Shown here in pieces: positions 21,105 through 43,160 of a DNA stretch of 64,000 nt; the first letter of the stretch is position 1, and each line of letters starts with the position of its first letter. The stretch is from Planctomycetota bacterium (GTDB lineage Bacteria; Planctomycetota; SZUA-567; H5-PLA8): NCBI GenBank assembly GCA_038227875.1, contig JBBRPR010000004.1, positions 76,830-140,829 of the forward strand, given 5' to 3'. The notes under the pieces are model-generated. The model did no database searches and was not told the origin of the DNA. It saw only the letters and a program-made list of their open reading frames with translations. The translations under genes and the position numbers were made by a program.

Positions 21105-21123
21105 GATTTTTTCAAGCTCCAGG

Positions 21124-23252: not shown

Positions 23253-23726
23253 ATGGCGGAAGCTGAAAAGTCAGAGCGGCTACAGTTTTCATTGCTGACA
23301 ATGTTTGTCGTCGCTCTTCTTGCCGGCGGCGTTCTGGGAATTTCAGTGGCCATATATAAAGTGATTCAGGATGACGGCAACGCTGCACAAACACGTCATG
23401 CGACCGATAGCGCTTTTCGAGTTGTCGAGCGCTTCATGGAGGCGCATCCAGGCCAGTGGCCTCAATCCTGGCGCGAACTGGAAACCGTAAAGGATCCAAG
23501 CACCGGAAAACCAATGGATTTGTATACTATTCAAAGACGTGTCAAAATTGACTTCACGCTCGGACTTGAAGATCTGGAAAAGCAGTCGGAAAGCACTTTC
23601 ACTGCAATTCAAGCCATTGGTCCCACGTATTCTGATTCGGAGAGCGCCAACCAAGCCAACCAGATCATTGAGTTGGCGAAGAAGTACGTCAAACTTCAGG
23701 CTCATGCGCCAGTATCGCAAAAATAG
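23253..23726 (+). CDS. Hypothetical membrane-anchored protein (157 aa)
   Basis: N-terminal TM segment FSLLTMFVVALLAGGVLGISVAIY. Slightly lower GC. Immediately upstream of the giant gene. Confidence 0.5.
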   Translation: MAEAEKSERLQFSLLTMFVVALLAGGVLGISVAIYKVIQDDGNAAQTRHATDSAFRVVERFMEAHPGQWPQSWRELETVKDPSTGKPMDLYTIQRRVKIDFTLGLEDLEKQSESTFTAIQAIGPTYSDSESANQANQIIELAKKYVKLQAHAPVSQK

Positions 23727-23859
23727 CGTTTGGACGCGCCGGGGTCGTTCCGAAGTCTGGTTTGGGACGCTAATTACCCGAAATGTGTGCAACGAATGCC
23801 GGGGTGCGGGGTCTAAAGTCGCAAATCGTCTGACGGGATTACTAAAAGGGAGCACCATC

Positions 23860-26800: not shown

Positions 26801-29800
26801 ATTACCTGACCGGCCGCAACATTGGCGATGAGTACCGTTACATTCTGGAACGGCGCTACGCGCCGAAGTTCGCCGGCAACATGCTGGCGCGGCCGAACCT
26901 GCTGCTCAATCCGTTCACGCTGCGCACGACCGACACGGCGCAGGACGATCTGAACGGCCAGGGCAATTTCGGTTCGCGTTCCGGCGGCGGACGGCGAGCG
27001 ATGATCACGCGCCACGGTGGAACCCGCGCCGACGAGACCGATTCGGCGCCGTGGGCGAATCTGGATTTCCTGCCCGAGCCGTCGACGCTGCTGGCCAATC
27101 TGGTGCCGGACAAGGACGGCGTGGTGAACATTTCGCGCAAGGACCTCGGCGCGCACCAGAACGTCCGCATCGTGGCCGTCGACACGCAGAACACGGTCGT
27201 GCGCGACGTCGCGCTGCAGGAAGTTGCGCTGAAGCCCAAGGACCTGCGCCTGGCGACGGGCCTGGACCCGGCCAAGCACTTCACCGAGCAGAAGGAAATC
27301 ACGCTGCTCAACGCGGGGCAGTCGCTGGTGATGGACGACATCACCACGTCGAGCCTGGAGTCGTTCGACACGCTGCGCAAGGTCTATGGACTCTACACGA
27401 CGCTCAGCCGTGACCCGCGCCTGAGCGAGTTCGCGTTCATTCTGGAATGGCCGAAGCTGAAAGACGACGAGAAGCGCGCGGCGTATTCCAAGTACGCGTG
27501 CCATGAATTGAATTTCTTCATCTACAAGAAAGATCCGGACTTCTTCAAGGCGGCGCTGCTGCCGTACCTGAAGAACAAGAAAGACAAGACGTTCATGGAC
27601 CACTACCTGATCGGCGACGACATGACGGCATACACGCAGCCGTGGAATTACGATCGCTTGAACACGGTCGAACAGATCCTGCTCGCGCACCGCGTTCAGG
27701 CGGAGCTGAATCCGGCCGTGCGCCACGCGAAGGAAATTTACGATCTGATGCCGCCGGACATCGAGCGCTTCAATTTCCTCTTCAAGACGGCGCTGCAGGG
27801 GAATGCGCTTGAGACGGCTGATGGCGTCGGCTTCCGCGAAGCGACGGGGAAGATTGTCGACAACAACCGCAAGTTGAACGACGCCCGCGATCAATTGAGG
27901 GCGAGTAATGAGGAGGGCAAGGCGGATGCTGCGCCCGCCGCCAACGGATTTGCGCTTGGTGGCGCTGCCGGACAGCCCAGCAACGGGCCTGCGTCGCCAC
28001 CGCCCCCGGCCGTTGCCGCCGCGAGACCCGCCGCACCCGCGAAAACCGAGCAGTTGGCCAAAAAGCTGGCTGACCAACGTTCCGACAAGAATAAGAGCGG
28101 CGAATTTAAAGAGCGTGAAAAGTTGAAGGACGCCGCCAAGAAGCCGATGGCGCAGGCGGCTCAAAGAGCTGCGGAGGCGGACGACGCCAAGGCGGACAAG
28201 CAGCAATTGGAGGGCTTGGCCGTCGATCTCGAAAGCCGCGACCAGGCGCAGCAACAGATGCTCTACCGGAAGCTCGACAAGACCGAGGAGCTTGCTGAGA
28301 ACAATTACTTCAAGCTGCCGATCGAACAGCAGCTCGCGTCACTGGTGACGGTCAACGCGTTCTGGAAGGACTTCGCGGCCAACGCCAACAAGGGACCGTT
28401 CCTTTCGGGGAACCTGGCCGAAGCGTCGCGCAACTTCACGGAAATCATGTTCGCGATGTCGGTGCTGGACCTGCCTTTCGAAGCCGGCAAGCACGCTTCG
28501 GAATTCGCGGCGCAGAAGATGACGCTCAACGCCAAGAGCCCGATCGTGGCGTACCACAAGGAGATCAAGGAAAGTCCCGCGGCGGAGAAGACGCCGGTGC
28601 TGGTCAGCCAGAATTTCTACCGCGCCGACGACCGCTTCCGCTTCGAGAACAACGAACGCTTCGACAAGTACGTCACCGACGAATTCCTGGTGCATGTCGT
28701 CTACGGCTGCCAGGTGGTGCTGACCAATCCGACGTCCTCACCGCAGAAACTGGATCTGCTGCTGCAGATCCCGCGCGGAGCGATGCCGGCGACCAACGGT
28801 TTTTACACCAAGGGGCCGTTCGTGCAGTTGGCGCCGTATTCGACGACGACGTTCGATTACCACTTCTACTTCCCGCTGCCGGGCGAGTTCACGCACTATC
28901 CCGTCCACGTTTCACGCAACGGCAAGATGATCGCGTCGGCCGCGCCGGTGATTTTGAAGGCCGTCGCCAAGCTGACGAAGATCGACACCGAGTCGTGGGA
29001 TTACATCTCGCAGAACGGCACGGACGAGCAGGTGATCACCTACCTGGATGCCAACAACATCCACCGCATCAATCTCGATCGCATCGCCTGGCGCATGGGC
29101 AACGCGGCGATGTTCAAGAAGGTCACCGAGCTGCTGACCCGCCGCCACGATTACAACAATACGCTCTGGTCGTACGCGATCGTGCACAACGACGTCCCGG
29201 CGATCCGTGAATTCCTGGCGCACGCCGATGGCTTCGTGGCGCAGACGGGGCTGTGGCTGGAAAGTCCGCTGCTGGCGATCGATCCGGTGGCGCGCAATTT
29301 CTATCAGCACCTGGAGTACAGCCCGCTGGTCAACGCGCGCGCACACCGGCTGGGCAAAGAGAACAAGATCCTCAACGACCGATTCTACGAGCAGTACGAA
29401 CGGATCCTGCATGTCCTGAAGTACAAGCCGGAACTCAGCGACGCCGACCGGCTCTCGGTCTCCTGCTACATGCTGCTGCAGGACCGCGTCGCCGACGGAC
29501 TGGCGATGTTCGCGAAGGTCAATCCGGAAAAGATCGCGACGAAGATCCAGTACGATTACGTAAAGGCGTTCGGCGACTTCTATTCCGACGAACACAAGAC
29601 GGCGCGCGAAGTGGCGGCGACGTACAAGGACTATCCGATCGACCGCTGGAAGAACCGCTTCGCCGATATCGTCGCGCAGCTGGACGAAGCGGCGGGCAAG
29701 AACGCCGTGGCCATCGACAAGGAAGACCGGACGCAGGCGATGGGCCAGCTGGCGGCCGGCGAGCCGAGCTTTGAGTTCAAGATCGACGGCAAGAAGGTGC

Positions 29801-30336
29801 ACGTGAACTTCCAGAACCTGCAGGGTGCCGAGGTCAATTTCTACCCGATGGACATCGAGCTGCTCTTCTCGAGCAACCCGTTTGTGCATGACGTCAACGA
29901 TCAGTTCTCGTTCGTGAAGCCGGTGAAGACTACGACGCTGAAGTTCCCGGAGAAGACGAAGGAGTTCGAATTCGACGTGCCGCCAGAGTTCCTCAATTCG
30001 AACGTGATGATCGAGCTGAATGCCGCCGGCACGCGGAAGTCGCAGGCGTATTACGCCAACGCGATGACCGTGCAGACGATTGAGAACTACGGGCAGGTCA
30101 AGGTCGTCAACCCAAAGACCGAGGCGCCGATGCCGAAGGTGTACGTGAAGGTTTACAGCAAGATGAAGGACGGCGAGGTGCGCTTCTACAAGGACGGCTA
30201 CACGGACCTGCGCGGCCGCTTCGATTACGCGTCGCTGAGTACCAACGAACTGGACAACGTAGCGCGGTTTGCGGTGCTGGTGATGAGCGACACCGACGGC
30301 GCGATCGTGCGCGAGGCGAATCCGCCGAAGCGGTAA
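23860..30336 (+). CDS. Giant secreted protein (2158 aa) of unknown family
   Basis: RBS AAGGGAG, then the ATG at 23860. Signal peptide MSNSRIPLVLFVALLAGAARG. An alpha-helical N-terminal ~500 aa, then multiple beta-sandwich-like repeats, then a low-complexity Ala/Pro/Lys/Gln-rich central segment. No catalytic motif recognised. Confidence 0.85.
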   Translation: MSNSRIPLVLFVALLAGAARGNEVGYVEDFALSANRGDTLKQLIPGSEDYYYYTCLTYQQTGAFDKVDELLKLWIERHGRTARVEEIVNRNALLAYEKDPKKSLDFLRWRLGLNFDHRKEIIDQKPNQPTRLDPAVIASETMTRDALNHYGNLQGIEDSALELLSQQKLTGEQRRELLGRLHRPDLTNMVQLVMEDLRYKYSSGFGSMEIHRQMTLAQLDELVKAMPELANQVNFIGAYLTKLQPTPDVDAQLNAKERLAWFDRVWAFVAKLQPAHNSLKAHVLFHRLEFDRTQGVYDKDRFMEYLKLPRPTAYMRPEYLQRTYQINGGQAQANLNQDFSASTLMVVVNTDDELVRDYLLHFFQKEEDFAPYLVYVRDDYIKDIFAEAKIVNGIGDMEKWYSLLNNPTRYQALKDRVDIDFAPENKHFFTANDAVSLDADVKNVKTLIVKVFEINALNYYREKNREVDTSINLDGLVANDEKTFTYDEAPLHRVRRHFDFPTLKKPGVYVVEFIGNGTSSRALIHKGKLRFIEHTGTAGHVFSVMDEENKPVKDASIWMAGRDYTADKDGEIHIPFSTAPGQQTIVLHQGEFASFDTFDHKGEVYTLNAGFHVDREALLKRQKASVLVRPELTLTGNLATVGLLEEVTLQIQTTDRDGVGTTKEIPDFKLFDDKESVYEFSTPDNIIQIGFTLRARVKSLTLQKKIDLATSRTFGLNRIDLSEKIEALHLNRTADGYFLQLLGKTGETKADRPVSLNFKHVDFREPAHAALQTDADGKIVLGQLPDIMLVSATLQDGQAYSWILPRDNHNYLSTVHGKPAQAIHLPYMGSEKAPTRAEFSLLELRGSQADGTGTFVRDCFENLAIADGFVEIKGLTAGDYSLLLKKANELVLIRITDGEIRDGYALGDVRTLEINNAEPLQITSVDANADTLKVQLKNVTKYTRVHVVADRFLPAYSIFTQLSTPGLQEPESVVWTKMISHYLTGRNIGDEYRYILERRYAPKFAGNMLARPNLLLNPFTLRTTDTAQDDLNGQGNFGSRSGGGRRAMITRHGGTRADETDSAPWANLDFLPEPSTLLANLVPDKDGVVNISRKDLGAHQNVRIVAVDTQNTVVRDVALQEVALKPKDLRLATGLDPAKHFTEQKEITLLNAGQSLVMDDITTSSLESFDTLRKVYGLYTTLSRDPRLSEFAFILEWPKLKDDEKRAAYSKYACHELNFFIYKKDPDFFKAALLPYLKNKKDKTFMDHYLIGDDMTAYTQPWNYDRLNTVEQILLAHRVQAELNPAVRHAKEIYDLMPPDIERFNFLFKTALQGNALETADGVGFREATGKIVDNNRKLNDARDQLRASNEEGKADAAPAANGFALGGAAGQPSNGPASPPPPAVAAARPAAPAKTEQLAKKLADQRSDKNKSGEFKEREKLKDAAKKPMAQAAQRAAEADDAKADKQQLEGLAVDLESRDQAQQQMLYRKLDKTEELAENNYFKLPIEQQLASLVTVNAFWKDFAANANKGPFLSGNLAEASRNFTEIMFAMSVLDLPFEAGKHASEFAAQKMTLNAKSPIVAYHKEIKESPAAEKTPVLVSQNFYRADDRFRFENNERFDKYVTDEFLVHVVYGCQVVLTNPTSSPQKLDLLLQIPRGAMPATNGFYTKGPFVQLAPYSTTTFDYHFYFPLPGEFTHYPVHVSRNGKMIASAAPVILKAVAKLTKIDTESWDYISQNGTDEQVITYLDANNIHRINLDRIAWRMGNAAMFKKVTELLTRRHDYNNTLWSYAIVHNDVPAIREFLAHADGFVAQTGLWLESPLLAIDPVARNFYQHLEYSPLVNARAHRLGKENKILNDRFYEQYERILHVLKYKPELSDADRLSVSCYMLLQDRVADGLAMFAKVNPEKIATKIQYDYVKAFGDFYSDEHKTAREVAATYKDYPIDRWKNRFADIVAQLDEAAGKNAVAIDKEDRTQAMGQLAAGEPSFEFKIDGKKVHVNFQNLQGAEVNFYPMDIELLFSSNPFVHDVNDQFSFVKPVKTTTLKFPEKTKEFEFDVPPEFLNSNVMIELNAAGTRKSQAYYANAMTVQTIENYGQVKVVNPKTEAPMPKVYVKVYSKMKDGEVRFYKDGYTDLRGRFDYASLSTNELDNVARFAVLVMSDTDGAIVREANPPKR

Positions 30337-30489: not shown

Positions 30490-32262
30490 TCACGGGGCGC
30501 TGAGGGCGCCGATATCGAGCACGGATTTTTTGGCGCGGGCGCGGCTATTCATCGGGAAAACCTGCTCGCGGTCGATCACGGCTTTCTGCGACTTGCCCGC
30601 GCCGTCGACGAACGTCAGCGCATCGCCGGTCGCGCCGTTGCCCAGGCAGGGCGACGCGGCCTGCAGGTGGTAATCGTGCGCGGCGGCGTTGACGAAAAGC
30701 GGATCGGCGTTGAGCGTCTTGGCCAGTTCCGGCGCGGCGCCGCTGCGGATGCAATTGTTCGTGCCTTTGATTTTGCCGCTCGCGACATTGAACAGCTTCG
30801 GTGAACCGATGAAGATGTTGTTGCTGGCGAAGAGCGCTTCGTCGGGCTTCTCGACCCACACGAATTGGATGCGCTCGGTCGCGGCGAAGAAGGTGTTGTT
30901 GAAGAGATAGAGGTCGCCTTTGCGCGAGCCTTTTTCAGCGCCGAAATCGAGGTACTTCGACGGATTTCCTTTGCGGTCGGCTTTGCTCTTCACCACGTTG
31001 CCAATCATCACGACATTGGAATTCGGCTTGGCGGTGTCTTCGCTTTCCTGAAAGCCGAGTTCTCCTTCTTCGGAATCGGCGATGAAGTTGTACCAGAGCT
31101 CCGTGTAGTGGCCGCGCGTTTTGAAATTCTGCCCGAAGAGCGAGCTGTGGATGTAGCACTCGCGGATGATCATGGCGTTGGCGTTGAGATAGAAGTTGTG
31201 GCTGTAGCCGTCGAAGTCCTTCGTGCCGTTGAAGGCGATCTCGCAGCGTTCGATCACGCCGGTGTCGAGATCGCCGCCCATGATGCCCATGTCGCAATAC
31301 GTGACCTTGCAGTTGCGCAGGATGCCGAAGTGGCTGTTGATGAAGCGCACGCCCGTGCCGTTGTTGCCGTTGCGCGCGTTCTTGATCTCGAACGAATCGA
31401 CGATGCAGTACGAGCCTTCGATCTGCACCGCCGCTCGCGGGGTCGGACCGGCGCCGCTGACGGACACGCCCGTGCAGTCGATCACCGGTCGTTCGCCCTT
31501 CGGGCCGACCATGCCGCGCAGCGTCACTGGCGCGTTGGGCTGGCCGGCGCACTTCATCTTGAACGCTTCCTTGTAGACGCCGGGATCGACGAGCACCGTG
31601 TCGCCGGCCTTTGCTTTGGCCAATCCAGCGGTGATGGTGGCCAGCGGCCGCGTCGGGCCCACGTTGATCACCGGCCCGCTGATCTGCGTCTGGTTCGGAG
31701 GCGGCGTGTAGACTGTGCCGGTCGCGGAGGAGACGGGCTGAGGTTCGGGCGCCTTGGACTTGGCTGTCGTCGCCGGCGCCGGATCGGCGGGCTTCTGCGT
31801 TTTCTGAGTCTGCAGAATGCGCTGCGAGAGATTGAGAATCTTCTCTTTCAGCTCGTCGCTGGGACTGCTGATTTTCGCGAGGATGTCGCAGGCCTTGTCG
31901 TGAAAGCCGAGCATGTTCGCGACTTCCGCCGCGACGACGAGACGTTCGCCCTTGTCGGAAGCGATCGACTTGGCGATGCCGGCGAGGTCTTCGGCGGAGA
32001 TTTCCTTCCACTTCACCGGAAACGGATTGCCTTGCACGTCGACCGTGAGCAGCGCGTCGGTGCAGCTTAAAATTTTGTACGTCTTACGTTCACCCAAAAC
32101 GGTCAGCCACACCGGCGGCTGCTCGCCGGCTTGCAGGACGGTGTCGAGCTGCTCCGAGAGATACGACGCGGTTTCCAGGCGCGTGGATTCTTCGACCGCA
32201 TGCGCCGTCAGCGGCGCGAGCAGAGTCAGGAAAAGAATCACGCAGCCGAAAAGTCGATGCAC
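30490..32262 (-). CDS. Secreted right-handed parallel beta-helix repeat protein (pectate-lyase-like)
   Basis: Signal peptide MHRLFGCVILFLTLLAPLTAHA. Beta-helix repeats (NNIFIGS, NNTFFAA, GNVVKS). The C-terminus resembles that of the 10094-11905 paralog. Confidence 0.8.
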   Translation of the reverse strand: MHRLFGCVILFLTLLAPLTAHAVEESTRLETASYLSEQLDTVLQAGEQPPVWLTVLGERKTYKILSCTDALLTVDVQGNPFPVKWKEISAEDLAGIAKSIASDKGERLVVAAEVANMLGFHDKACDILAKISSPSDELKEKILNLSQRILQTQKTQKPADPAPATTAKSKAPEPQPVSSATGTVYTPPPNQTQISGPVINVGPTRPLATITAGLAKAKAGDTVLVDPGVYKEAFKMKCAGQPNAPVTLRGMVGPKGERPVIDCTGVSVSGAGPTPRAAVQIEGSYCIVDSFEIKNARNGNNGTGVRFINSHFGILRNCKVTYCDMGIMGGDLDTGVIERCEIAFNGTKDFDGYSHNFYLNANAMIIRECYIHSSLFGQNFKTRGHYTELWYNFIADSEEGELGFQESEDTAKPNSNVVMIGNVVKSKADRKGNPSKYLDFGAEKGSRKGDLYLFNNTFFAATERIQFVWVEKPDEALFASNNIFIGSPKLFNVASGKIKGTNNCIRSGAAPELAKTLNADPLFVNAAAHDYHLQAASPCLGNGATGDALTFVDGAGKSQKAVIDREQVFPMNSRARAKKSVLDIGALSAP

Positions 32263-33087
32263 GGATTAGATCCTGGGAAGTCGCGTCGTCGTTGCTTCCT
32301 TGAATACACCGTTGACGATACCGGGAGGGGCATCTGAGTGCCATTTTGTTGTATTATTTACAACTCGTTAACTCTAACGAAATCAAGTCTATGCAACCGC
32401 AGCTCTAAAGGAACTATGTCAATAGCGCTCCAGCTCCTTAAAATAAATGATCTGGATGTTGCCTTGCCGTGCGCATCTCAAACAGTGCGGTGGGTTAAAA
32501 TCGCGTTGACTGCGCCTCCACAGTCACGCGGTTCTTCTACATCAGCAGCGGATACTTTGAGAGTTTCCATGCGATGCTGCGTGACGATCCTGGTGATGTT
32601 TCGCCCTACGAGACGGAGAAGGCTGCGCGCAGAGTTCTGATCGCCCTTTTCTACAATTGCATAAAGTATAACATTGACTTAAGATGGCTTTAATCCTGAA
32701 TCAAAGGCCCGCCCGAATGCGCTCCCCCACGTGCAGCGCTATGCTTTTCTAATACAAAACCAAGTTGCACATGGGCGCCATTAAGGTTTTACACACCATG
32801 TGGTTGTGGATTTTGTACAGGATGTGCAGTTGATCGGACGCAGATTGAGACATGAATCGCGGAAAAATATGTCGCGATTTACGAAATCTAAACTACAGTT
32901 ATGTCGAATGTTTTAGTAACGGCTACATACGCGCGAACTTCCAAAAGGTGGCAGAGAAAAAGCGAGAAAAATTCGCACAGTGCCCCGTGCAATTTTCGCG
33001 GCGCTGGAAGTTTTGAAATGTGGTCCACGCATTGCATTCTCGGGCGTCGAGTCATTCATTTGAACGTTGCACGTGGGAGTCGCAAAA

Positions 33088-33897
33088 ATGAGATTCAATC
33101 GCTTCGCTCATTTGAATCGGTCGCGCGGCTTCACGCTGATCGAATTGATTCTTGTCATCTTCATCATGGCGCTTCTGACGGCCATGACCACGCCGATGCT
33201 CTTCCAGTTTGTGAAGACGACAAAAGTACAACAGACGGTGAAGGCAATCTCCACGTCGCTCTACCGCGCCCGCACGGAAGCGATGCGGACACGAAAAATG
33301 GTGGGCGTGTATTTCGGTGAAGATCCGACCAGCTGCAAAACCCCACCGCTGCCCGGCGTGCTGCCGAGCAAGGGTCGCATTGAAGTTTGGACCGTGCGGG
33401 ATTCCTACGACAGTGGCGACTTTCAGAACGAAGGCGGCTGCATGGGCAGCACAACGCCCTACAATCTTCCGTTCGATGGAGCCAACTGGTATCCGTACCG
33501 CCACCCCGACCGCTGCCTGACGCCCGAACCCATCTCTTATCCCGATGGCGTGCGCATTCTCGCGGGCAAGTTCAGCAACAACGCGACCGCGCCCAAATAC
33601 GTGTTCGGCTGGCCAAAAGACTACATGGCCACGGCCGAAGGCGAAATCAAACGCCACAACATCACGTTCGCCTCGACCGGCGCGATGGCGATGCCCATCG
33701 ACGGTGTGAACAGTTGGTGGAATCTTTTGATTTTCGATGAACAGACCGGCGAATACACCCTGCTCTCCTGTGGCGAATGGCTCACTTCGGCCCGACCGCG
33801 GGTGCTGAACTTTCAGTTGAGCGGACTGTATGGCCCGTCGGGCACGTACTACCCGCTGACCAACAAGCTGGACATTCCGAAGCTCGTCGAACAGTAA
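33088..33897 (+). CDS. Prepilin-type N-terminal cleavage/methylation domain protein (pseudopilin 1, 269 aa)
   Basis: RSRGFTLIELILVIFIMALL has the G/FTLIE class III signal with Glu at +5. GGGAG RBS. Confidence 0.8.
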   Translation: MRFNRFAHLNRSRGFTLIELILVIFIMALLTAMTTPMLFQFVKTTKVQQTVKAISTSLYRARTEAMRTRKMVGVYFGEDPTSCKTPPLPGVLPSKGRIEVWTVRDSYDSGDFQNEGGCMGSTTPYNLPFDGANWYPYRHPDRCLTPEPISYPDGVRILAGKFSNNATAPKYVFGWPKDYMATAEGEIKRHNITFASTGAMAMPIDGVNSWWNLLIFDEQTGEYTLLSCGEWLTSARPRVLNFQLSGLYGPSGTYYPLTNKLDIPKLVEQ

Positions 33898-33914
33898 ACG
33901 CAAAGAGGAACGCC

Positions 33915-34520
33915 GTGCGCACCACGCTTGAAACACCGATCCTTTCCATCCGCAGCAGAGCGCGCCGGCCGCGCGGTTTGACGTTGCTGGAAGTGATCAT
34001 CGCGATGTTCATCTTCCTGATCGGCATCGTGGGCGTGCTGGCGGCGATGCCGACGGGCATCAATTCCGCGACGTGGGTGATCTTTCAGGATTCGGCGATC
34101 CATCTGGCGCATTCGAAATTCGCGGAATTCCGGCGCGACCGCGTCGATCCGGCCGTGCAGCTGAATCCCACTCCCGGCGGTTACCTGCCGACGACAACAC
34201 CTTATATGGCGGGGAATCAGGAACCGTTCAACAGCGAGGGCGATCCGTGGCGCGATTTCGCGCACAACGCTGGTGATCCGTACCAGTACTTCGAAGACAT
34301 CGACCGCTACGAATGGTGTGTCGATGCGACGCACGCCATCGACAACGGCATTGGCTCCACCGATGTTCCGCTTCCGGCGAATTTCTTTTTTCCCACGAAC
34401 GTCGCCCCGGGCGGCGTCTCGCGGATTCAACTCTACCGCGTCGACATCACCATCCGCATGAAGAGCACCACGCGGCAGATGCGCTTTACGCAATACCTGT
34501 ACTCGTACGGCCAGCTGTAA
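33915..34520 (+). CDS. Prepilin-type N-terminal domain protein (pseudopilin 2, ~201 aa, GTG start)
   Basis: RPRGLTLLEVIIAMFIFLIGIVGV. AAGAGGA RBS, then the GTG at 33915. 17-bp gap from the upstream gene. Confidence 0.7.
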   Translation: MRTTLETPILSIRSRARRPRGLTLLEVIIAMFIFLIGIVGVLAAMPTGINSATWVIFQDSAIHLAHSKFAEFRRDRVDPAVQLNPTPGGYLPTTTPYMAGNQEPFNSEGDPWRDFAHNAGDPYQYFEDIDRYEWCVDATHAIDNGIGSTDVPLPANFFFPTNVAPGGVSRIQLYRVDITIRMKSTTRQMRFTQYLYSYGQL

Positions 34521-34539
34521 AAACGGGGATCGGAAGTTC

Positions 34540-35775
34540 ATGAAGGATACGCATCACAACCCGCTGAGACCGCGCGCCTTCACTCTGGTGGAGATGATGG
34601 TGGTGCTGACCGTCAGCCTGCTGCTGATGACGATGATCGTGCCGGTCTTCCGGCTCTCGACGAAAACCGTGCAGGTGGTCGAACGGAAGCTGGCTGTCTA
34701 CGAATCGGCGCGCAACATCCTCGACCTGGTCGAATCGGAACTGCAGCTGGCCATCACCAATGAAAAGGGCGAACACTTCTCGATCAAGCACGTGTCGTGG
34801 ATGGACACCGATCCGTTCACGCCGCCGTTTACCGGTCCAGTGATTTTGCCTGGAACGATGGACACCGGAAACATCGCGTACAAGCACGACCGGCGCATCA
34901 GTGACGCGGTGAACTACCTGCGACTGGAAGGCCACGGCACCAATTCGAATTACGTGCCGTCCATGCGCCAGTTTCCCGGCGGCAAATTCTTTCCACTCAG
35001 CTATCCGATTCTTGAGGCCACGTTTCCTGAAGCGTGGAAATGCTCGATGCGTTCCACGCTGCTGTACCAGCACGATTTCGAACTCGGCGAAGAAGCGGAC
35101 TCCGACGCCGGCCAGAAACGCTGGAGCCGTTCCGAACAGCTCGGCGACGTGGGCCAGGTGGAACTCGCTTTTATTTTTGAAACGGTTGCCAATCAATGGG
35201 AAGGCATCCAGGCGGCCAAGACCATGTACGACCAGACCGCCAATTACCTGGGACCCGGGCGCGAGATCAAGGTACCGCATCTGGTTGGAGGATCGGGCGG
35301 ACCCGGCCAATTGGAATTCCAGCGCCAGCGCCGCGGAGGCCAGGTCAAGATTATGGACCTTGCTGTTTCCTACTGGGACGACACCCAGAAAAAATACATG
35401 GATTTGCCGGAAAATACGGTGATCTACTTCTTCCCCATGCCCAAGGCCGTGCGCACGACCATCACGGTCTGCGATGTCGACAAGCGCACCACGCTGACGC
35501 TCAGCCGCATCGTCCATCTGCCCTGCGGCTCCGGCGATGGCAACGCGCTGTTGAACCCAGGTGTCGTGGCAGACACGGCCTACTTCACTGACCTGAAGCA
35601 GCCCAACAACACGATGCACGCGGTCTACAACCGGACCAAGTACCTGCCGTCGCTGCCCAACGCGTTCAATGGCGACGGTTCGCGCGGTGACCTCACCACC
35701 ACGTCCGATTTTTCGTCCGCGACCGAAAACAGCATCATCACGCAGGATGGCGTCAAACCGTATCAATGGCCGTAG
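34540..35775 (+). CDS. Prepilin-type N-terminal domain protein (pseudopilin 3, 411 aa)
   Basis: PRAFTLVEMMVVLTVSLLLMTMIV. 19-bp gap from the upstream gene. Confidence 0.75.
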   Translation: MKDTHHNPLRPRAFTLVEMMVVLTVSLLLMTMIVPVFRLSTKTVQVVERKLAVYESARNILDLVESELQLAITNEKGEHFSIKHVSWMDTDPFTPPFTGPVILPGTMDTGNIAYKHDRRISDAVNYLRLEGHGTNSNYVPSMRQFPGGKFFPLSYPILEATFPEAWKCSMRSTLLYQHDFELGEEADSDAGQKRWSRSEQLGDVGQVELAFIFETVANQWEGIQAAKTMYDQTANYLGPGREIKVPHLVGGSGGPGQLEFQRQRRGGQVKIMDLAVSYWDDTQKKYMDLPENTVIYFFPMPKAVRTTITVCDVDKRTTLTLSRIVHLPCGSGDGNALLNPGVVADTAYFTDLKQPNNTMHAVYNRTKYLPSLPNAFNGDGSRGDLTTTSDFSSATENSIITQDGVKPYQWP

Positions 35776-35809
35776 AGCGTTTTGGGAATCGGATTTGGAA
35801 CTGCAGCAC

Positions 35810-38800
35810 ATGAAGCAGCGCACCACACGAAACAATGCTACTGCAACGGGGCCTGGTGCCGTTTCCAGCCGGGGCTTTTTGTTGCTGGTCGTAATCGGCA
35901 TCCTGGCCGTGCTGTTGACCGTCTGCATCGGTTTCCTGTCATACACACGCGGTGAGATCCTGGCCGTCTCCGCGCAGCGCAACAAGAGCGACGTGGTGGA
36001 CGTGATGCACACGGCGCTGGACTACACGCTGGCCAATATCTGCACCGACCAGATGTCCGGCACCGGCAGCATGGACGAGAAGGTACCCTGCGCGTATACG
36101 CTTACTCCCGGTGCGACCGGCCTTACCGGCTCGCCGTGGTGGTTCCGGACGCTTCAAAACGGAACGTGCGACTTTCTGCCCCGGAACGACAGCATCGTGG
36201 GCGGCGGCTGGGGATTTTCATTGAAGCCGGCGACTCAGCCGGGCGTGGAGACCAATTGGATTTATCTTCCCGCCGACTACTTCCCGGGTGGCGCCATCCG
36301 CGGACGCGCGCAAGTCCAGGTGATGGACACCAATTGCTGCATCAATGTCAACGACTGGAACGAAGACGGCATGCCCTCGCAGGCCCAGATGGCGCACATG
36401 ATTGCGGACGGCTACGGACCTCTTTATCTCGAAAGTCTGCGCCGCGGGCGCGATGTCGCCAGCCCCAACGGCGTGCCCTATAATCCGTTGCGCTACCATG
36501 AAGCGTGGCGCGTCGCCAGCCACTCCGCGCGCTACATGGCCTGGCCGGATTGGGACTATCACAGCGACGGTGCTCCGATCAACAACACCGCAAGTTTCTG
36601 CTTTGCAACGAAGAACTCGTCGTGGCTGAGCATGTATGGGCCGCAGTACAGCTGCATCTCGTCGATCATTCAGTCCGATGGCATTCCGCTGGGACAGACT
36701 ACAGCCGCCACGGTTTATCTTGGCTCCCAGCTGTACGCAACGGTGAACCCGTGTCCGGCACCTAAACAGTACGACCGAACTCCGCCGACCAATCCGTCGG
36801 GCTTCACCTGGGGCAATCCGCAGAGCGCGGGGTTCCTGCCATGGGGCATGGCGGGATTTTTCACCACGGGCTACACGGACCCCGACACTGGCCGCAGCCC
36901 GGTCAACGTCAACACCTGTTACAATTCCGGTGAGATTCTCCCTTTCGACTACTGGAGCAATCCTCCCTGCTACACGATGGAAGGCGTCTGGAACGTCGAA
37001 TCGCTGCGGCGCATCATCAAGGTCGGCTGGTTCAACGATCCGTGGTCGACGTACTGCATGATCGGTGGAGTCAAAACGTTGCGTACTGCGGTGCCAGCGG
37101 CGAGTGGCGGGACGACGTGGTCGAATGCGCAGCGCGATTGGTGCGTGCTCGATCCCAGAGCGAAGATACTCGTCGAGACGCTGAAATTGCAGCTCGCCTA
37201 CCAGTACCAGGAAACGCTCTGCCGTTACTTTACTGGAACGTACTCTCATGGCGGAGTGAACCAGAAGTTCAAGCCCTTCAGTGCCACTGCCATCAAGACC
37301 TACCCGTCGACGTACACACCGGCTACTACACCGCTGCCTGCGCCGACGCATCCGTGTCTGGTCACGAATTACAGCGCGCCGCGGTTCCCGGTATCGCTCA
37401 CGGATTTTCGCAATCATGTGCGAGACGACCTCGTCAATTGTCTGAGCAAGAATTTCACCAATCCCGCCTACACGACAGCGGTGGCCGGGCTGCCGCCGGG
37501 AACGCCGCTTCCGCCGCGCCCGGCGGGTCAGCTCGATGCCACGTACACGGATGGCACCGTGAACTTTGTCTTCGTGGGCCCGGGTTTCGTCCCGGAGATC
37601 GCTCCGGGAAAACTGGACGTGCGCACCGCTTGCGCGTGCTATGACAACATGGTCCCCGGCAAGCCGGTTGACATTACTGTGTTCAACGGTTGCACAGCCT
37701 ACGGCGCTGGCGATCCGATTTACGAACTCTACGCGCTACAGGTTGGTCGCCAGGAAGACATGGACGACGCCTATCAGATCGATGCCAGCATCATTCATGA
37801 TTCCGCAATCAATGGCATCAACGGTACGGACGTCCGTCCTTCCCGCAAAAAGCTGGGAGCCACAAACAACGGCAATCCCACGTTCAATCTGGGTACCGTA
37901 CCCAGTCCCGCGGTTTACCCCTTCTCGCTGGTGACGTGGCCGCTTCCCGCGCTGACCGCGGCCACGAAGATCGGCAACATCTCGTCACGCTGGGTGGACA
38001 ATCCTCAACTGAGCGCCACGTCGTACTACTCAAGCTTCAATGGACCCGATCCGGCGTGGGAAGCACATTTGTATGACCATCACACCCGCATGATGACGCT
38101 GCTGCCCAAGGGCAACGACATCTGCTCGCGAAACGCGTTCGATCCCGCGGACGGCCGGAAGTTCAATGGCACGGTTGTCACCGGAAGTCCCGAAATTCCC
38201 ACCGGACCGTGGTTGGATGACATGGTCCTGGGCTCAGGGGGCACGATCGTCAGTACCGGTTACAACCAGATGAATCGTTCAGGATCCAATCAGCATGACG
38301 TTCCGTTCCGCCAGCTGTGTTTCACGCCCGATTCGTTCTCGACAGAATTGACGACGACGTCGACGACCTTTCTGATCATCGTCAACGCGCAGTTGGTCGA
38401 TCAGGCCTCAGTCGTCGCCAATCCGGGCAATCCCGCTCTGCATTTGGATCAGTCGTGGAATCAGTGGGGCTGTGTCGTGCAGATCGCTCCCGATGTCAAG
38501 GTGGAGACGTCTGTGAGCGAACCGGCAACCAAGAACATGCTCAAGACCGTTCCTCCTGATCCGAACATGCAGACGCCCAATGGCCCCGCAGCGCCGGACG
38601 CTCAATTCTGGCAGTGGTACAAAAACGAAATGCCTCGCCGCGTCAAGACCTATCAGGGCACACTGCCGATGACCAGCAATGGCTGGCTGGATGATTCCTA
38701 CTTGGATGACGCCTGCCCCAGTCTGTACGCCCGCAATCGCGGTAACACGGGTGCCTACACCACGCCGTTTGGGCGCACGTCGAATCAGCCCCGCATGCCG

Positions 38801-39082
38801 TGGAAGGGAGTTGGCGGATACAACCCAGCGATGAGCGGCGGTGTGGCGGAATTGGAAAACTCGAACTCCACCCACATCCGCGACTGGAAACGGGCCCTCA
38901 ACCCCGGCGAGATCACCACCGGCTGCGATATCAACCAGGTGCCGCCGGCGGGCGTACCCAGCGGGCGCGGCGCGGACGTCATCTATACGCCAGCCAATCA
39001 GATCAAGAAGCGCATCATCATCCGCTCGATCTGGTGTCTGAATCAGGGCATTGAGCAACAACGGGCCACGCAGGGAGATTGA
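35810..39082 (+). CDS. Giant GspK-like pseudopilin (1090 aa): pilin-like N-terminal helix without Glu+5, followed by a ~1040-aa extension
   Basis: MKQRTT...SRGFLLLVVIGILAVLLTVCIGFLSYTRGEILAVSAQRNKS is a GspK-type N-terminus. 34-bp gap from the upstream gene. Confidence 0.75.
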   Translation: MKQRTTRNNATATGPGAVSSRGFLLLVVIGILAVLLTVCIGFLSYTRGEILAVSAQRNKSDVVDVMHTALDYTLANICTDQMSGTGSMDEKVPCAYTLTPGATGLTGSPWWFRTLQNGTCDFLPRNDSIVGGGWGFSLKPATQPGVETNWIYLPADYFPGGAIRGRAQVQVMDTNCCINVNDWNEDGMPSQAQMAHMIADGYGPLYLESLRRGRDVASPNGVPYNPLRYHEAWRVASHSARYMAWPDWDYHSDGAPINNTASFCFATKNSSWLSMYGPQYSCISSIIQSDGIPLGQTTAATVYLGSQLYATVNPCPAPKQYDRTPPTNPSGFTWGNPQSAGFLPWGMAGFFTTGYTDPDTGRSPVNVNTCYNSGEILPFDYWSNPPCYTMEGVWNVESLRRIIKVGWFNDPWSTYCMIGGVKTLRTAVPAASGGTTWSNAQRDWCVLDPRAKILVETLKLQLAYQYQETLCRYFTGTYSHGGVNQKFKPFSATAIKTYPSTYTPATTPLPAPTHPCLVTNYSAPRFPVSLTDFRNHVRDDLVNCLSKNFTNPAYTTAVAGLPPGTPLPPRPAGQLDATYTDGTVNFVFVGPGFVPEIAPGKLDVRTACACYDNMVPGKPVDITVFNGCTAYGAGDPIYELYALQVGRQEDMDDAYQIDASIIHDSAINGINGTDVRPSRKKLGATNNGNPTFNLGTVPSPAVYPFSLVTWPLPALTAATKIGNISSRWVDNPQLSATSYYSSFNGPDPAWEAHLYDHHTRMMTLLPKGNDICSRNAFDPADGRKFNGTVVTGSPEIPTGPWLDDMVLGSGGTIVSTGYNQMNRSGSNQHDVPFRQLCFTPDSFSTELTTTSTTFLIIVNAQLVDQASVVANPGNPALHLDQSWNQWGCVVQIAPDVKVETSVSEPATKNMLKTVPPDPNMQTPNGPAAPDAQFWQWYKNEMPRRVKTYQGTLPMTSNGWLDDSYLDDACPSLYARNRGNTGAYTTPFGRTSNQPRMPWKGVGGYNPAMSGGVAELENSNSTHIRDWKRALNPGEITTGCDINQVPPAGVPSGRGADVIYTPANQIKKRIIIRSIWCLNQGIEQQRATQGD

Positions 39083-39157
39083 ACGCCAGCATGCAGTTGA
39101 TCGACGATGTAACGACGGGCCGCAGTGCGGAGGATGACGTTCGTGTTGGAGACCACA

Positions 39158-40762
39158 ATGTCGGGTGAAAAGGCGAACGTTCCGTCCGGCGACGCTGCCG
39201 AACCGGAAAAAACCGTTCGCAATCCTCAGCCTCCCCGCACGCCCACGCCGCCGAGCGTCCCGCTGGCCGCTCAGCCTCCGCGTCTTTCCACGGCCAAATA
39301 TGTGCCCATCGGCAGCAGTAGTGGAATTGGACCGTCAGCTGCATCAGGAACCGGAACACGAGCAGGTACCGGACGGTTTATGCCGATCGGCGGCCGCCGC
39401 GCGACGGATCCCAAGCCTTCCAATCCGGCGCGTGGGACTTTCACTCCCGCATCGGGCGGAGCGCCCGGCGGCGTCCGCACGCCCAGTAAGTTTACGCCTG
39501 TCCCCCCCGCGTCCTCACTCAGTGGCGGCTCGGCGGCTGGATTGCGCCCCCAGTCGCGCCCAGGCCAGGCGGGCCAGATGAGCCAGCCGGCGCGCTCAGC
39601 CAACCAGCCCACCTCCAACAGCATCAATCCCTTCGGCAATCTGACCGTCAATGCGCCGGCAAAATCGGGGATCAACAAAGCACCGGGAGCAACCGCCACG
39701 TCCGCCACGTCCGCCACGTCAGCGGGGTCGGGGCATTGGAGCTGTTCGAAGTGCGCCAAAGCGCTGGGACCGCGCAGTGTCAACCAGGGCACGGCGATTT
39801 TCCTTGAAGGCAATCTCATCTGCGTCGAATGCGTGAAAGGCAACCGCCGCAACCAGGCGCAGTTGCCCGTGGCCACGCTCGCGATTTTCGGCGTCGTAAC
39901 CCTCGCGATCCTCGGCGTCGTCGGATTTTTTCTGCCCAGCCAGGCACTGCTGATCGGGCTGTTGCTCGGCGTGTCGCTGCTGCTCGTCGGTACCATTGGA
40001 TTCACGCTGGATGGAAAATCGCGGCTGGGGACGGTGGCCGCCGGACTGCTGGTGATCGCGCTGACCTCCTACGGCCTGATCGTCACCGGTGAACACAAGG
40101 AAGAGAAGGCGGCGTTCAGCGAGATCGCCACGCAGGCCGACGAAGTCAAAACGCTGCTGGCGAAGGATTGCCTGCTGGAAGCCGAAGCCCGCATCAACAC
40201 CGTCGAAACGCAGATGGACAAAAAGTACGGCGGCCAGCCGCCTCCCAATGTCACCACTGCCATCGTCGCGCTGCGCAAGTCGACGCAGGAGTGGAAGGAA
40301 GCGCATTTCGGCAAGCTGCAAACCACCGAACAGAAATTGCTCTCGGAACTCTACCACCGCGTCGGCTCCCTGACGCCGTACACGCAAACGCCGCGCATTC
40401 AGCAGTACAAGATCGAAGAAGGCAAACACCTGCTGGTCACAGTCGCCACCGACGTTAAGCCGCCGGAGGTTCAGAACTCCTCCGACGACGGCACGACGAT
40501 CAACAAAGAGACCGACGACCCGATCGGCGCGGAAGCCTCGCGCGTGGCGATGCTGGCGATCAAGCAGGACCGCGCACTGGAAACGATCACCGTCCGGATC
40601 GTCTCCGGCGGACCCAACAGCTCTGAATTGCTGACCCGCACCTACGACGCCACGCGCGTCGCCGAAATCCGCAACAACCTAAACGCCCCCGCGCGCGCCC
40701 GCACGCGGACCGCGGAATCCAGCACCGCGCCACGGTTTGAACGTCCGCCAGAACACCCGTGA
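39158..40762 (+). CDS. Polytopic membrane protein with a disordered Pro/Gly/Ser-rich N-terminus, a CxxC...CxxC zinc ribbon, three TM helices and a C-terminal soluble domain
   Basis: WSCSKCAKALGPRSVNQGTAIFLEGNLICVECV. TM helices LAIFGVVTLAILGVVGFFL, LLIGLLLGVSLLLVGTIGF and AAGLLVIALTSYGLIV. GGAGA RBS before the ATG at 39158. Confidence 0.65.
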   Translation: MSGEKANVPSGDAAEPEKTVRNPQPPRTPTPPSVPLAAQPPRLSTAKYVPIGSSSGIGPSAASGTGTRAGTGRFMPIGGRRATDPKPSNPARGTFTPASGGAPGGVRTPSKFTPVPPASSLSGGSAAGLRPQSRPGQAGQMSQPARSANQPTSNSINPFGNLTVNAPAKSGINKAPGATATSATSATSAGSGHWSCSKCAKALGPRSVNQGTAIFLEGNLICVECVKGNRRNQAQLPVATLAIFGVVTLAILGVVGFFLPSQALLIGLLLGVSLLLVGTIGFTLDGKSRLGTVAAGLLVIALTSYGLIVTGEHKEEKAAFSEIATQADEVKTLLAKDCLLEAEARINTVETQMDKKYGGQPPPNVTTAIVALRKSTQEWKEAHFGKLQTTEQKLLSELYHRVGSLTPYTQTPRIQQYKIEEGKHLLVTVATDVKPPEVQNSSDDGTTINKETDDPIGAEASRVAMLAIKQDRALETITVRIVSGGPNSSELLTRTYDATRVAEIRNNLNAPARARTRTAESSTAPRFERPPEHP

Positions 40763-41041: not shown

Positions 41042-41968
41042 ATGCTCACCCAACAGCAGGTCGATCAGTTTCACCGCGAAGGATTTCTGATTCTGCGTGG
41101 CATGTTCGCCGGCAAAGAGCTCGAATTGCTCCGCGCTGCCGCCACGCGCGTGCAGGAGGAAGGCGTCGCGAATCTGGGCGCCGATCACCTCTACACCAAC
41201 ATACCCGGCAAGGGCAAAGTCTACTTCCGCAGCGAACGAATGTGGGAACGCGACCCGATCTTCCAGGCCGTCACCGTCAAGCCGGAACTGCTGGAATGCA
41301 TCGGCCAATGCGTCGGCCATCCGTTCCTGCCGATCAACGATTCCTTTGTCTGCAAACTTCCTGAAGGCAACGTGCCGATCACGTGGCATCAGGATCCGCC
41401 GTATGGTTCGACCAAACAAGAATACGCGTCGACCTTCGAAGTGCCGAATTTCGACGTCGACATTTACCTCGACGACTCCACGATCGAAAATGGCTGCGTC
41501 TGGGGAATTCCCGGCCATCACCTCGTCGGCCATATCGACCTCAAACGTTTTACCGAAGACGAACTCTTCTCGAAATTTGGCGCGGTGCCGATGCTGATGG
41601 CGCCCGGCGATGTGCTCTTCCACAGCTTGTCGGCGCCGCACGGTTCGCGTGGCAATCTCACCAAGACGATGCGCCGCATTTTCTACGTCCATTACATGGC
41701 GCGCGAAGTCCTGGAATACTGCTACCCCGGCTGGGGCAAGAAGAGCGGCTTTACTGAATCCGGAATGGCGTTCGCCGGAAACATGCTCAACGTTCGCAAG
41801 TCCTTCGGCTTTGAGGGCATCGAGAACAGCAAGGTGATCTTCACGCCGGAAGGCTACGCCTTCACTGGGCAGCCAGGAACTCCGCCGCGCCACTGGGGCG
41901 CGTTGCTGGCGGCGATGAGCGACGAGGAGAAAGCGCGCAAGCGGATGCTGGAGTCGGTGCTGGCCTAG
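41042..41968 (+). CDS. Phytanoyl-CoA dioxygenase (PhyH) family protein, paralog 2
   Basis: QQVDQFHREGFLILRG, ITWHQDPPYG, NFDVDIYLDDST and WGIPGHH. Shares motifs with 8956-9870. Confidence 0.85.
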   Translation: MLTQQQVDQFHREGFLILRGMFAGKELELLRAAATRVQEEGVANLGADHLYTNIPGKGKVYFRSERMWERDPIFQAVTVKPELLECIGQCVGHPFLPINDSFVCKLPEGNVPITWHQDPPYGSTKQEYASTFEVPNFDVDIYLDDSTIENGCVWGIPGHHLVGHIDLKRFTEDELFSKFGAVPMLMAPGDVLFHSLSAPHGSRGNLTKTMRRIFYVHYMAREVLEYCYPGWGKKSGFTESGMAFAGNMLNVRKSFGFEGIENSKVIFTPEGYAFTGQPGTPPRHWGALLAAMSDEEKARKRMLESVLA

Positions 41969-42143: not shown

Positions 42144-43160
42144 ATGAAAGTCGGAATCATCGGTGCTGGGGGCATCGCCCACACGCACGCAAAGGCCATC
42201 AAAGCCGCCGGACACGAACTGGTTGCGGTGACCGATGTTGACGCCGCGCGCGCCAACGCCTTCGCCACGACGCATACGACGCTCGCGTTGGGTTCCGTCG
42301 GGCAACTGCTGGAGCAGGACCTGCAGCTCGTAACCATCGCCGCACCCAACCGTTTTCATTTCGAGCTCTCAGCTCAAGCCTTGAAAGCCAAACGCGCGGT
42401 GCTCTGCGAAAAGCCGCTCACGGCCAACGCTGAACAATCGCAGAAGCTGATTGAACTCGCCCGCCACGAGCGCCAGCCGCTCTTCGTGGGCTTCATGAAA
42501 CGCGCTCATCCGGTGATGCAGAAGTTTCACGCGTACGCGCAGCAGATCGGGCCGCTGACCAGCGGGCTGGTCCGCGTGCACATGCATTGCGACGTGAAAG
42601 TCTGGGAGAACATCGCGTCCGCGATGAAAAATCCCAAAGACCCGCGGCACGAAGCGGGCTGCGGCATGCTCGCCATGGTCGACAGCCACATGCTCGATTT
42701 GCTGCTCTGGGCCGCCGGCCCGGTCAAGCGGGTCGTCGGCGCGCGCTTGCAATACCGCGCCGGTTGCGCGCCGATGGACTGCGCCGCGCACGCGTTGCTG
42801 GAGATGGAAAACGGCGCGTCGATCCTGCTCGACAGTTCCTTCTCGCCCCTGACCGGCGTCGGCCGTCGCGAAAACGGGCGCGACGAGTTGATCGAACTGC
42901 GCGGGGACGCGGGACTCGCGCGCATCTTCACACCCGTCGCCGACCGCCCGGAAACCGACGCGCCCGTCGCCGAACACTGGGACGAAGCGAGCAAAGGCTG
43001 GGAAGGTTCGACGATCAATGGCGTCAACTACTACACGCGGGAATTCGAATATATTGCGCTGGCGCTGCGCGGCGAAACGGTGCCCCTCGCGACCGGCGAG
43101 GATGGCGCGCGCGTCGACGCGTTGATCGACGACATCGTCCGCGCTTCCAGCGAGTGCTGA
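42144..43160 (+). CDS. Gfo/Idh/MocA family oxidoreductase
   Basis: MKVGIIGAGGIAHTHAKAIKAAGHELVAV...CEKP. Confidence 0.85.
   Translation: MKVGIIGAGGIAHTHAKAIKAAGHELVAVTDVDAARANAFATTHTTLALGSVGQLLEQDLQLVTIAAPNRFHFELSAQALKAKRAVLCEKPLTANAEQSQKLIELARHERQPLFVGFMKRAHPVMQKFHAYAQQIGPLTSGLVRVHMHCDVKVWENIASAMKNPKDPRHEAGCGMLAMVDSHMLDLLLWAAGPVKRVVGARLQYRAGCAPMDCAAHALLEMENGASILLDSSFSPLTGVGRRENGRDELIELRGDAGLARIFTPVADRPETDAPVAEHWDEASKGWEGSTINGVNYYTREFEYIALALRGETVPLATGEDGARVDALIDDIVRASSEC

Follow-up and report, generated by a model that had tools for sequence, protein, structure and literature searches.

A multi-copy pseudopilin cassette with a giant predicted GspK-fold protein and a putative zinc-ribbon membrane partner in Planctomycetota

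Where and when a type IV filament starts, and what it will bind, is determined by its minor-pilin tip complex. Can a complete set of such tip proteins be kept by a genome as a unit of its own, apart from any filament machine? This question is raised by a cassette of five genes, here called g1 to g5, within a 64,000-nucleotide stretch of a Planctomycetota genome (assembly GCA_038227875.1, contig JBBRPR010000004.1, positions 76,830 to 140,829), which is referred to below as the window. Four of the genes encode prepilin-type proteins that follow the order of the pseudopilins GspH, GspI, GspJ and GspK of the T2SS (type II secretion system), and the fifth encodes a membrane protein with a predicted zinc ribbon. 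In the reading we favour, and to which we give a somewhat better than even chance, the cassette would be an orphan and duplicable module of the GspH-I-J-K type, for the tip or the priming of a T2SS-like filament, with a giant cap and a filament machine that serves it in trans.

What is new here are the giant GspK family, its conserved partner with a zinc ribbon and the confinement to Planctomycetota. The GspK scaffold appears to be expandable more than threefold, in a family that stands outside Pfam, NCBIfam and the solved structures, and a complete H-I-J-K set can exist as a multi-copy module apart from any machine. g5 adds a conserved partner without a known counterpart.

The cassette and its relatives

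A preliminary description, made from the letters of the window, had listed five co-directional, close-packed genes at 33088–40762, and this layout, on the forward strand, stands. The open reading frames (ORFs) are separated by 17 (g1–g2), 19 (g2–g3) and 34 nucleotides (nt; g3–g4), and by 75 nt between g4 and g5 if the latter begins at ATG 39158, or 42 nt if it begins at GTG 39125. Many spurious long ORFs arise in GC-rich sequence, and one may ask if the row consists of mis-called frames, or of unrelated hydrophobic N-termini brought together by chance. This idea, to which we attach next to no probability, is refuted by three observations: the GC content of third codon positions (GC3) is 0.72–0.78 in all five genes, as in other real genes of this window of about 60% GC; homologues of all five genes occur in the same order on many contigs; and g4 yields a confident AlphaFold model.

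Related loci were drawn from genomes and metagenomes and compared by tblastn. The five-gene order is kept in nine or more independent loci from Planctomycetota or metagenomes, with g1-g2-g3-g4-g5 in the same order and on the same strand in L003/L004, L006, L007, L008, L011, L016 (where the g5 homologue was recognised by eye), L020 and L022. Every one of the shorter contigs is compatible with this order, and g5 homologues are found 3' of g4 in nearly all related loci. The arrangement is therefore not a matter of chance. The preliminary description had made its reading depend on the genes not being scattered one by one in related genomes, and with the order kept in these loci it survives on this point. 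Two exceptions were seen: in L009 the g5 homologue (3269–4393) lies upstream of the cassette with a 972-residue ORF between them, and in L031 a lone g4 homologue (10001–12949) stands beside pheT and housekeeping genes, without g1–g3 and g5.

The cassette also occurs in several copies, of which the metagenome-assembled genome (MAG) TGS_PLA7 (GCA_026184295.1) holds five separate ones. Identity to the window is highest for g2 (45–54%), the most conserved member, and amounts to 32–47% for g1 and g3, 29–43% for g4 and 21–30% for g5. A collection of 5.8 billion proteins contains 64 homologues of g4, all unannotated or 'hypothetical' and none with a Pfam domain; those with a named source all come from Planctomycetota MAGs. 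When 1.84 billion cluster representatives were searched with a profile, only 105 matches came back, 53 of them strong and about 50 full-length, so the g4 family is rare. An exact look-up of g3 found nothing.

Is the module complete with its five genes? Nine related loci have a GspG-like gene just upstream of the g1 homologue, at times together with more pilin genes. The encoded proteins carry the N_methyl domain, match Pfam T2SSG in three of the ten examined and share a C-terminal YS.G.N..DD.G..DD motif. Since this gene adjoins most relatives, the fuller module would read G-H-I-J-K-g5. Neither the window nor L003, its closest long relative, has this gene, and a degraded copy in the AT-rich spacer of about 800 bp upstream of g1 is ruled out, as tblastn found no remnant of a GspG-like gene there. 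The term 'self-contained', used in the preliminary description, was accordingly too strong.

The absence of linked machine genes was part of the same description and is confirmed on a broader basis. Pfam searches of about 35 window ORFs found no domain of a T2SS or type IV pilus (T4P) ATPase, platform protein, secretin or prepilin peptidase. The E. coli K-12 proteins GspC/D/E/F/L/M/O (locus L034) had no tblastn match in 438 kb, comprising the window and 33 related loci; GspG alone did, and solely to pilin N-termini. In none of the loci examined does a GspD/E/F/L/M/O gene lie within 10 kb of the cassette. A Pfam census of 92 flanking ORFs of the related loci found no recurrent machine genes; sulfatases, a glycoside hydrolase of family 42 (GH42), oxidoreductases and AraC and sigma-54 regulators make up these flanks.

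A distant locus shows another arrangement. In L036:1-12092 (JGI 3300035158) a giant K-like protein of 1363 residues (P0124) is encoded by the last gene of an operon; in front of it lie, in this order, T2SSF, two G-like genes, two H/D-like genes, an I/V-like gene (505 residues) and a J/ComGF-like gene (550 residues). All pseudopilins of this machine-linked system are enlarged, and the presence of T2SSF in the operon indicates that giant K-type subunits can be encoded alongside a machine.

Four prepilin-type proteins and a giant GspK fold

The four prepilin signals of the first reading are borne out by several lines of evidence. A six-frame motif scan of the 64 kb found exactly three class-III signals with a glutamate at position +5 (Glu5), and these are the ones of g1, g2 and g3. 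All three proteins match Pfam N_methyl above its cut-off (g1 with 29.9 bits). Across their orthologues G/A(-1), F/L(+1) and E(+5) are conserved, with F+1, T+2 and E+5 invariant in 12 orthologues of g1 and F, T and E invariant in 14 of g3. The signal of g4, …SSRG/FLLLVV, has a hydrophobic residue at +5 and no glutamate, and G22, F23 and L25 show hardly any variation among 57 homologues.

Which pseudopilins do g1 to g3 correspond to? NCBIfam models match their N-termini. For g1 these are Verru_Chthon cassette protein D (E 9e-10, 39 bits against a cut-off of 70) and GspH (E 4e-9, 36.8 against 80), for g2 PilV TIGR02523 (20.5 against 52.2) and GspI (20.1 against 44.35), and for g3 Verru_Chthon cassette protein C (23.8 against 256.5 bits); the GspJ model scores 16.7 on g1 against a cut-off of 64.85. 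Along similar lines, hhalign with single E. coli Gsp sequences, in which the N-terminal helices alone were aligned, gave the longest alignment of g1 with GspH (72 columns, 32 for GspG), the best one of g2 with GspI and the longest of g3 with GspJ (61 columns). Profiles of 12–14 orthologues match PDB pilins in the N-terminal helix only. All three thus have Glu5 in their class-III signals and N-terminal helices that fit best to GspH (g1, over 65–72 positions), GspI/PilV (g2) or GspJ (g3). With these preferences and the E. coli gene order gspH-I-J-K as its basis, it is reasonable to regard g1, g2 and g3 as probable counterparts of GspH, GspI and GspJ.

For g4 the fold is more telling. The only significant structural matches of its AlphaFold model are the T2SS proteins GspK and XcpX, and the model has the GspK-type pilin fold with an α-domain inserted in the β-sheet. 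For g4, then, the structural resemblance suspected in the preliminary description extends beyond the N-terminal helix, at the level of a predicted model. Two φNφN motifs bracket an α-helical insertion, and the g4 segments QVMDTNCCINVND and RSPVNVNT parallel QLRDAQHCFNLNAL and ELSINLNML of E. coli GspK, which we take to bracket the α-domain of that protein, with boundaries set by inspection of the sequence, not from a structure. Sequence comparison gives far less. An hhalign comparison of g4 with E. coli GspK is not significant (probability 4%), and sequence and profile searches of the PDB with g4 had no match. Several weakly related proteins that the g4 profile reaches at the N-terminus (P0114, P0117, P0120 and others) match the NCBIfam GspK model, up to positions 2–132 of 307, and also the Verru_Chthon_A N-terminus. 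At the level of sequence the link from g4 to GspK is transitive only, through these distant relatives. On the strength of the model we conclude that g4 is a giant minor pseudopilin with a predicted GspK fold.

With 3.3 times the length of E. coli GspK (327 residues), in keeping with the roughly threefold excess noted at first reading, g4 has about 800 residues beyond the GspK core. Foldseek found nothing significant for them in the PDB, so they are without a solved counterpart. Along the chain seven conserved blocks (24–54, 156–203, 353–377, 390–406, 459–480, 600–617 and 835–863) are accompanied by variable, poorly occupied insertions (414–436, 560–573, 662–717, 781–824, 914–925 and 983–1039), and the family ranges from 727 to 1202 residues.

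Taken together, signals, N-terminal profiles, gene order and the predicted fold of g4 support the initial assignment to a minor-pilin set of the GspH-I-J-K or FimU-PilVWX type. How close is the cassette to the T2SS quartet GspH-I-J-K (XcpU-V-W-X; structures 3ci0 and 5vtm)? The four genes are consecutive, stand in the E. coli order, carry class-III signals and end with a member without Glu5. The differences are just as clear: the cassette lies outside a gspC-O operon, its proteins have 269, 201, 411 and 1090 residues as compared with 169, 125, 195 and 327 in E. coli, the extra 800 residues of g4 have no match in the PDB, and none of the NCBIfam equivalog cut-offs is reached. Moreover, the zinc-ribbon protein g5 with its three transmembrane (TM) helices follows in place of GspL/GspM, and several paralogous copies occur per genome.

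In concept the uncharacterised Verru_Chthon cassette comes closest, and the arrangement is thus not unprecedented. Verru_Chthon, which occurs in Verrucomicrobia in multiple copies, has four genes, three for prepilin-signal proteins and one for a protein of about 1300 residues, represented in NCBIfam/TIGRFAM by TIGR02596 (D), TIGR02598 (B), TIGR02599 (C) and TIGR02600 (A). Both are orphan multi-copy sets of three prepilin-signal proteins plus a very large one, both belong to the Planctomycetes-Verrucomicrobia-Chlamydiae (PVC) superphylum, and Verru_Chthon models are the best or near-best NCBIfam match for g1 (D) and g3 (C). These matches, however, are confined to the N-terminal 60 residues or so and lie far below the cut-offs, g2 and g4 match neither B nor A, the host is a member of the Planctomycetota instead of the Verrucomicrobia, and g5, a fifth conserved gene here, may be another difference. 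A literature search for 'Verru_Chthon' found no paper that mentions the cassette.

A zinc-ribbon membrane partner

The fifth gene had been described as a polytopic zinc-ribbon membrane protein, and its homologues agree with this: in 16 of them the four cysteines of a CxxC-x22-CxxC motif and one arginine are invariant, followed by three hydrophobic helices. The AlphaFold2 model, made with a three-sequence alignment, has low confidence (predicted local distance difference test, pLDDT, 67; predicted template modelling score, pTM, 0.41). A disordered Pro/Ser-rich N-terminus comes first in the protein; the model then has a pair of zinc-knuckle hairpins, followed by three TM helices, further long helices and, at the C-terminus, a ferredoxin-like domain. 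g5 is matched by no family of Pfam or NCBIfam. The start at ATG 39158 is favoured by the N-terminus ('MSGEKAN') of the 58%-identical homologue P0141. The public call P0140 starts at ATG 39380 and has 460 residues; since P0141 aligns from 'MSGEKAN' at 39158, the deposited annotation is probably truncated by 74 residues.

The cysteine pairs invite two comparisons, both of which were rejected. g5 as a prepilin peptidase would be expected among Peptidase_A24 or DiS_P_DiS proteins; it matches no such family and has three TM helices only, and E. coli GspO found no tblastn match in the window and the 33 related loci. A zinc-finger anti-sigma factor is dismissed on the same grounds, lack of a family match and the presence of only three TM helices.

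A third comparison is with the assembly-platform proteins GspL/GspM and PilN/PilO. Like gspL/gspM, g5 directly follows a K-type gene, and it is predicted to be an inner-membrane protein with periplasmic helices and an α-β-β-α-β-β domain. It differs in having three TM helices as compared with one, a cytoplasmic C4 zinc ribbon and a Pro-rich tail, and no actin-like domain of the GspL kind; its ferredoxin-like periplasmic domain is present in the low-confidence model (pLDDT 67). hhalign with single E. coli sequences of GspL and GspM gave no signal, and no link in sequence or fold to GspL/M or PilN/O was found. That g5 may be a docking or loading adaptor for this tip complex is something we can only infer, since the basis is its gene position, in the place of gspL/gspM, and its in/out topology.

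The same layout, a zinc module, TM helices and a periplasmic domain, recalls transmembrane signalling and anti-sigma proteins, and this leads to an explanation without any filament. The class-III signals would then be cleavable inner-membrane anchors of a periplasmic or membrane complex that includes g5, for example in substrate binding or signalling. Such a reading would also accommodate the lack of linked machine genes in all 33 loci and of a major-subunit gene next to the window cassette, and large PulG-like families with unclear roles are present in PVC genomes (PMC13274419). The gene order H-I-J-K, a K-type signal that lacks Glu5 and the predicted GspK fold of g4 are nevertheless hallmarks of a tip complex and not of anchored proteins in general, a GspG-like gene adjoins most relatives, and g5 has no match to anti-sigma zinc-finger or other signalling families. 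We therefore consider a function without a filament very unlikely.

Some further features of g5 vary between clades. Its disordered cytoplasmic N-terminus contains three to six repeats of the form [K/S][FY]x-P-[IV] (window 39296–39505, residues ~58–127 of the 545-residue form), which were reached in 0 of 500 shuffles. The repeats are also found in P0141 and L003:12895-13440 and are limited to the clade of the window, which is the clade without an adjacent GspG-like gene; elsewhere in the family, g5 proteins seem to carry Gly/Ser-x-Pro repeats instead. In some homologues (L011:12579-13955, L022:12446-13897 and L024:2470-3873) another CxxC…CxxC zinc ribbon, at the far N-terminal end, adds to the conserved one beside the membrane.

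A possible tip module and its surroundings

How could such a cassette work? In the reading that we favour, g1 to g4 would be inserted into the inner membrane via their class-III signals and processed by a prepilin peptidase encoded elsewhere. By analogy with GspHIJK and XcpUVWX, g2, g3 and g4 would form a trimer at the tip with the Glu5-less g4 on top, and g1 would join this trimer to the filament body. The complex might then prime the polymerisation of a GspG-like major subunit, whose gene lies beside the cassette in most relatives and would have to lie elsewhere in this genome. The additional 800 residues or so of g4, with their lineage-variable insertions, would be displayed at the filament tip and most plausibly form a cap that binds ligands or substrates. 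g5, whose predicted zinc ribbon would face the cytoplasm and whose ferredoxin-like domain the periplasm, may dock or load the tip on a shared machine of ATPase, platform and secretin, a role that can be likened to that of GspL/M or PilN/O in canonical systems. Several paralogous cassettes per genome would then offer alternative tips for one machine, and the cassette may serve in adhesion or in secretion.

Several points weigh against this view. No machine or prepilin peptidase has been demonstrated in the host genome, where the search covered the 64-kb window together with the 33 related loci. The NCBIfam GspH/I/J matches all stay below the cut-offs and are confined to the first 60–75 residues or so, and the globular parts of g1–g3 have no sequence or profile match to any pilin. 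g4 matches neither the NCBIfam GspK model NF037980 nor any Pfam family (E<=1). Furthermore, a T2SS-type and a T4P-type filament cannot be told apart with the present data.

This last point opens the way for the main alternative. In type IVa pili the four-pilin priming complex FimU-PilV-PilW-PilX presents PilY1, a large tip protein of more than 100 kDa, and Myxococcus xanthus has multiple alternative minor-pilin/PilY1 sets per genome. The cassette might likewise be the minor-pilin set of a surface-extended T4P, with g4 as PilX and PilY1-like adhesin in one, and would then serve adhesion or the capture of macromolecules and not a T2SS piston. g2 indeed matches the PilV model as well as GspI, if weakly, sets occur several times per genome, and one distant K-like relative has a weak PilX_N match. 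Pilins with grafted binding modules are widespread (PMC8179133), and in planctomycetes dextran is bound by fibres that arise from crateriform structures (PMC5394234; PMC12673574). Genes for polysaccharide degradation (GH9, β-helix proteins, sulfatases, a rhamnosidase and GH42) surround the cassette in the window and in relatives; since neighbourhoods rich in carbohydrate-active enzymes are common across the phylum, the argument from context is weak. On the other side, the sole significant structural matches are to GspK/XcpX of the T2SS, adjoining major-subunit genes of relatives match Pfam T2SSG, Pfam and NCBIfam reveal no PilY1 β-propeller, PilX_N or PilW domain in g1–g5, and the large protein g4 is itself of the pilin type with a predicted GspK fold. 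We judge an extended pilus to be rather unlikely; it departs from the favoured reading in the type of filament only, and the logic of a tip module is the same in both.

The size of g4 can also be seen in the light of the modular pilins, among which GspK itself, with its inserted α-domain, has been counted (PMC8179133). PilB and PilC of S. sanguinis, CofB of enterotoxigenic E. coli and ComZ of Thermus (PMC8179133) likewise combine a pilin module with bulky modules presumed to be exposed at the tip. The additions of g4 are instead insertions within the GspK core and an extension of it, not a C-terminal graft, and they match no known domain signature.

Could the cassettes be more than a tip for one filament? 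Fibre-mediated uptake of macromolecules has been observed in Planctomycetota, with no known genes (PMC5394234; PMC12673574). One could imagine exchangeable tip cartridges, each made of G/H/I/J/K and a g5 loader, that reprogram one shared machine, possibly the one of the crateriform fibres, for different macromolecules. We regard this as a speculation with small odds. The same small chance applies to the parts it would assign, with the g4 cap as a ligand-binding head and g5 as a new class of adaptor that chooses which tip is loaded. If it were true, the cassettes would offer a first molecular handle on fibre-mediated macromolecule uptake in this phylum. Already if they supply alternative tips, the search for uptake genes becomes testable; if they do not, g4 and g5 would still represent two new protein families associated with type IV filaments. 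A connection of the cassettes with the uptake of macromolecules by planctomycetes, though attractive, is a conjecture.

Table 1 Features of the cassette, its upstream region and the GspG-like genes of related loci (window positions unless a locus is named)
Feature	Position	Strand	Description
g1	33088-33897	+	269 aa, prepilin-type, signal ...SRG/FTLIE, leader MRFNRFAHLNRSRG; GspH-like in N-terminal ~75 residues
g2	33915-34520	+	201 aa, GTG start, signal …RRPRG/LTLLE; GspI/PilV-like N-terminus
g3	34540-35775	+	411 aa, signal …LRPRA/FTLVE; GspJ position; large globular part without assigned fold
g4	35810-39082	+	1090 aa, signal …AVSSRG/FLLLVV, no Glu5; giant minor pseudopilin with predicted GspK fold
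g5	39158-40762	+	534 aa, predicted inner-membrane protein; 545 aa from GTG 39125; 460 aa from 39380
g5, predicted zinc ribbon	39743-39832	+	C207-x2-C210 … C233-x2-C236 (545-aa numbering); modelled as two β-hairpin knuckles
g5, three predicted TM helices	39875-40081	+	52-70, 72-95, 98 onwards (trimmed model); invariant Arg300 in loop before third
g5, C-terminal α-β-β-α-β-β (ferredoxin-like) domain	40325-40681	+	predicted periplasmic
Long intergenic region	32263-33087	.	between divergent β-helix gene (30490-32262, minus strand) and g1
Tentative sigma-54-type -24/-12 element	33021-33036	+	TGGTCCACGCATTGCA, 52 nt 5' of g1 ATG
GspG-like genes upstream of cassette	L006:6668-7294; L007:6814-7326 (and 6169-6798); L008:6875-7441; L011:6950-7630		
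GspG-like genes upstream of cassette	L016:6665-7237; L017:1651-2178; L020:5223-5756 (and 3719-4327, 4581-5210); L022:6917-7618		

Upstream of g1 lies the AT-rich non-coding region that had been pointed out before. Its GC content is 0.44–0.50 as compared with about 0.60 elsewhere in the window, it contains no ORF with coding-like GC3 (the ORFs there have about 0.48), and Rfam finds no RNA family in it or anywhere in the 64 kb. Presumably it is the promoter or regulatory region of the cassette. A putative sigma-54-type element close to g1 (Table 1) is only a lead. Two or three relatives also have a relaxed TGG-N8-TTGC pattern 5' of their first cassette gene, at 66 nt in L011 and 89 nt in L022, where 0.04 per region are expected by chance; across the window, sigma-54-type matches with two mismatches are not above chance. 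A scan for sigma-70 promoters found nothing above shuffles. A gene for a sigma-54 activator is located at 48753–50282 of the window, and genes of this kind are met repeatedly in the regions that flank related loci. Terminator-like structures number 17 as compared with 8.9 expected.

Pfam assigns window ORFs to PKD/Ig, FecR, AraC regulators, PhyH, β-helix, GH9, GFO/IDH/MocA oxidoreductases and LamG, and further ones to two-component and sigma-54 regulators, a ProRS-like protein, AnmK and DprA. On both sides the cassette is flanked by genes for polysaccharide and sugar utilisation, including GH9, β-helix, PKD and LamG proteins. Three types of gene are present in duplicate within the window: PhyH dioxygenases (8956–9870 and 41042–41968), GFO/IDH/MocA oxidoreductases (20043–21143 and 42144–43160) and AraC regulators (7931–8881 and 22282–23181). 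Just upstream of the divergent β-helix gene that flanks the cassette, a very large ORF (23539–30336, forward strand, 2157–2265 residues, GC3 0.84) has no Pfam domain. Finally, an island of low GC content at 12800–16400 (0.45–0.49 against 0.60), which may be foreign DNA, holds a HEAT-repeat ORF at 14331–15671 (minus strand, GC3 0.43) together with ORFs without matches.

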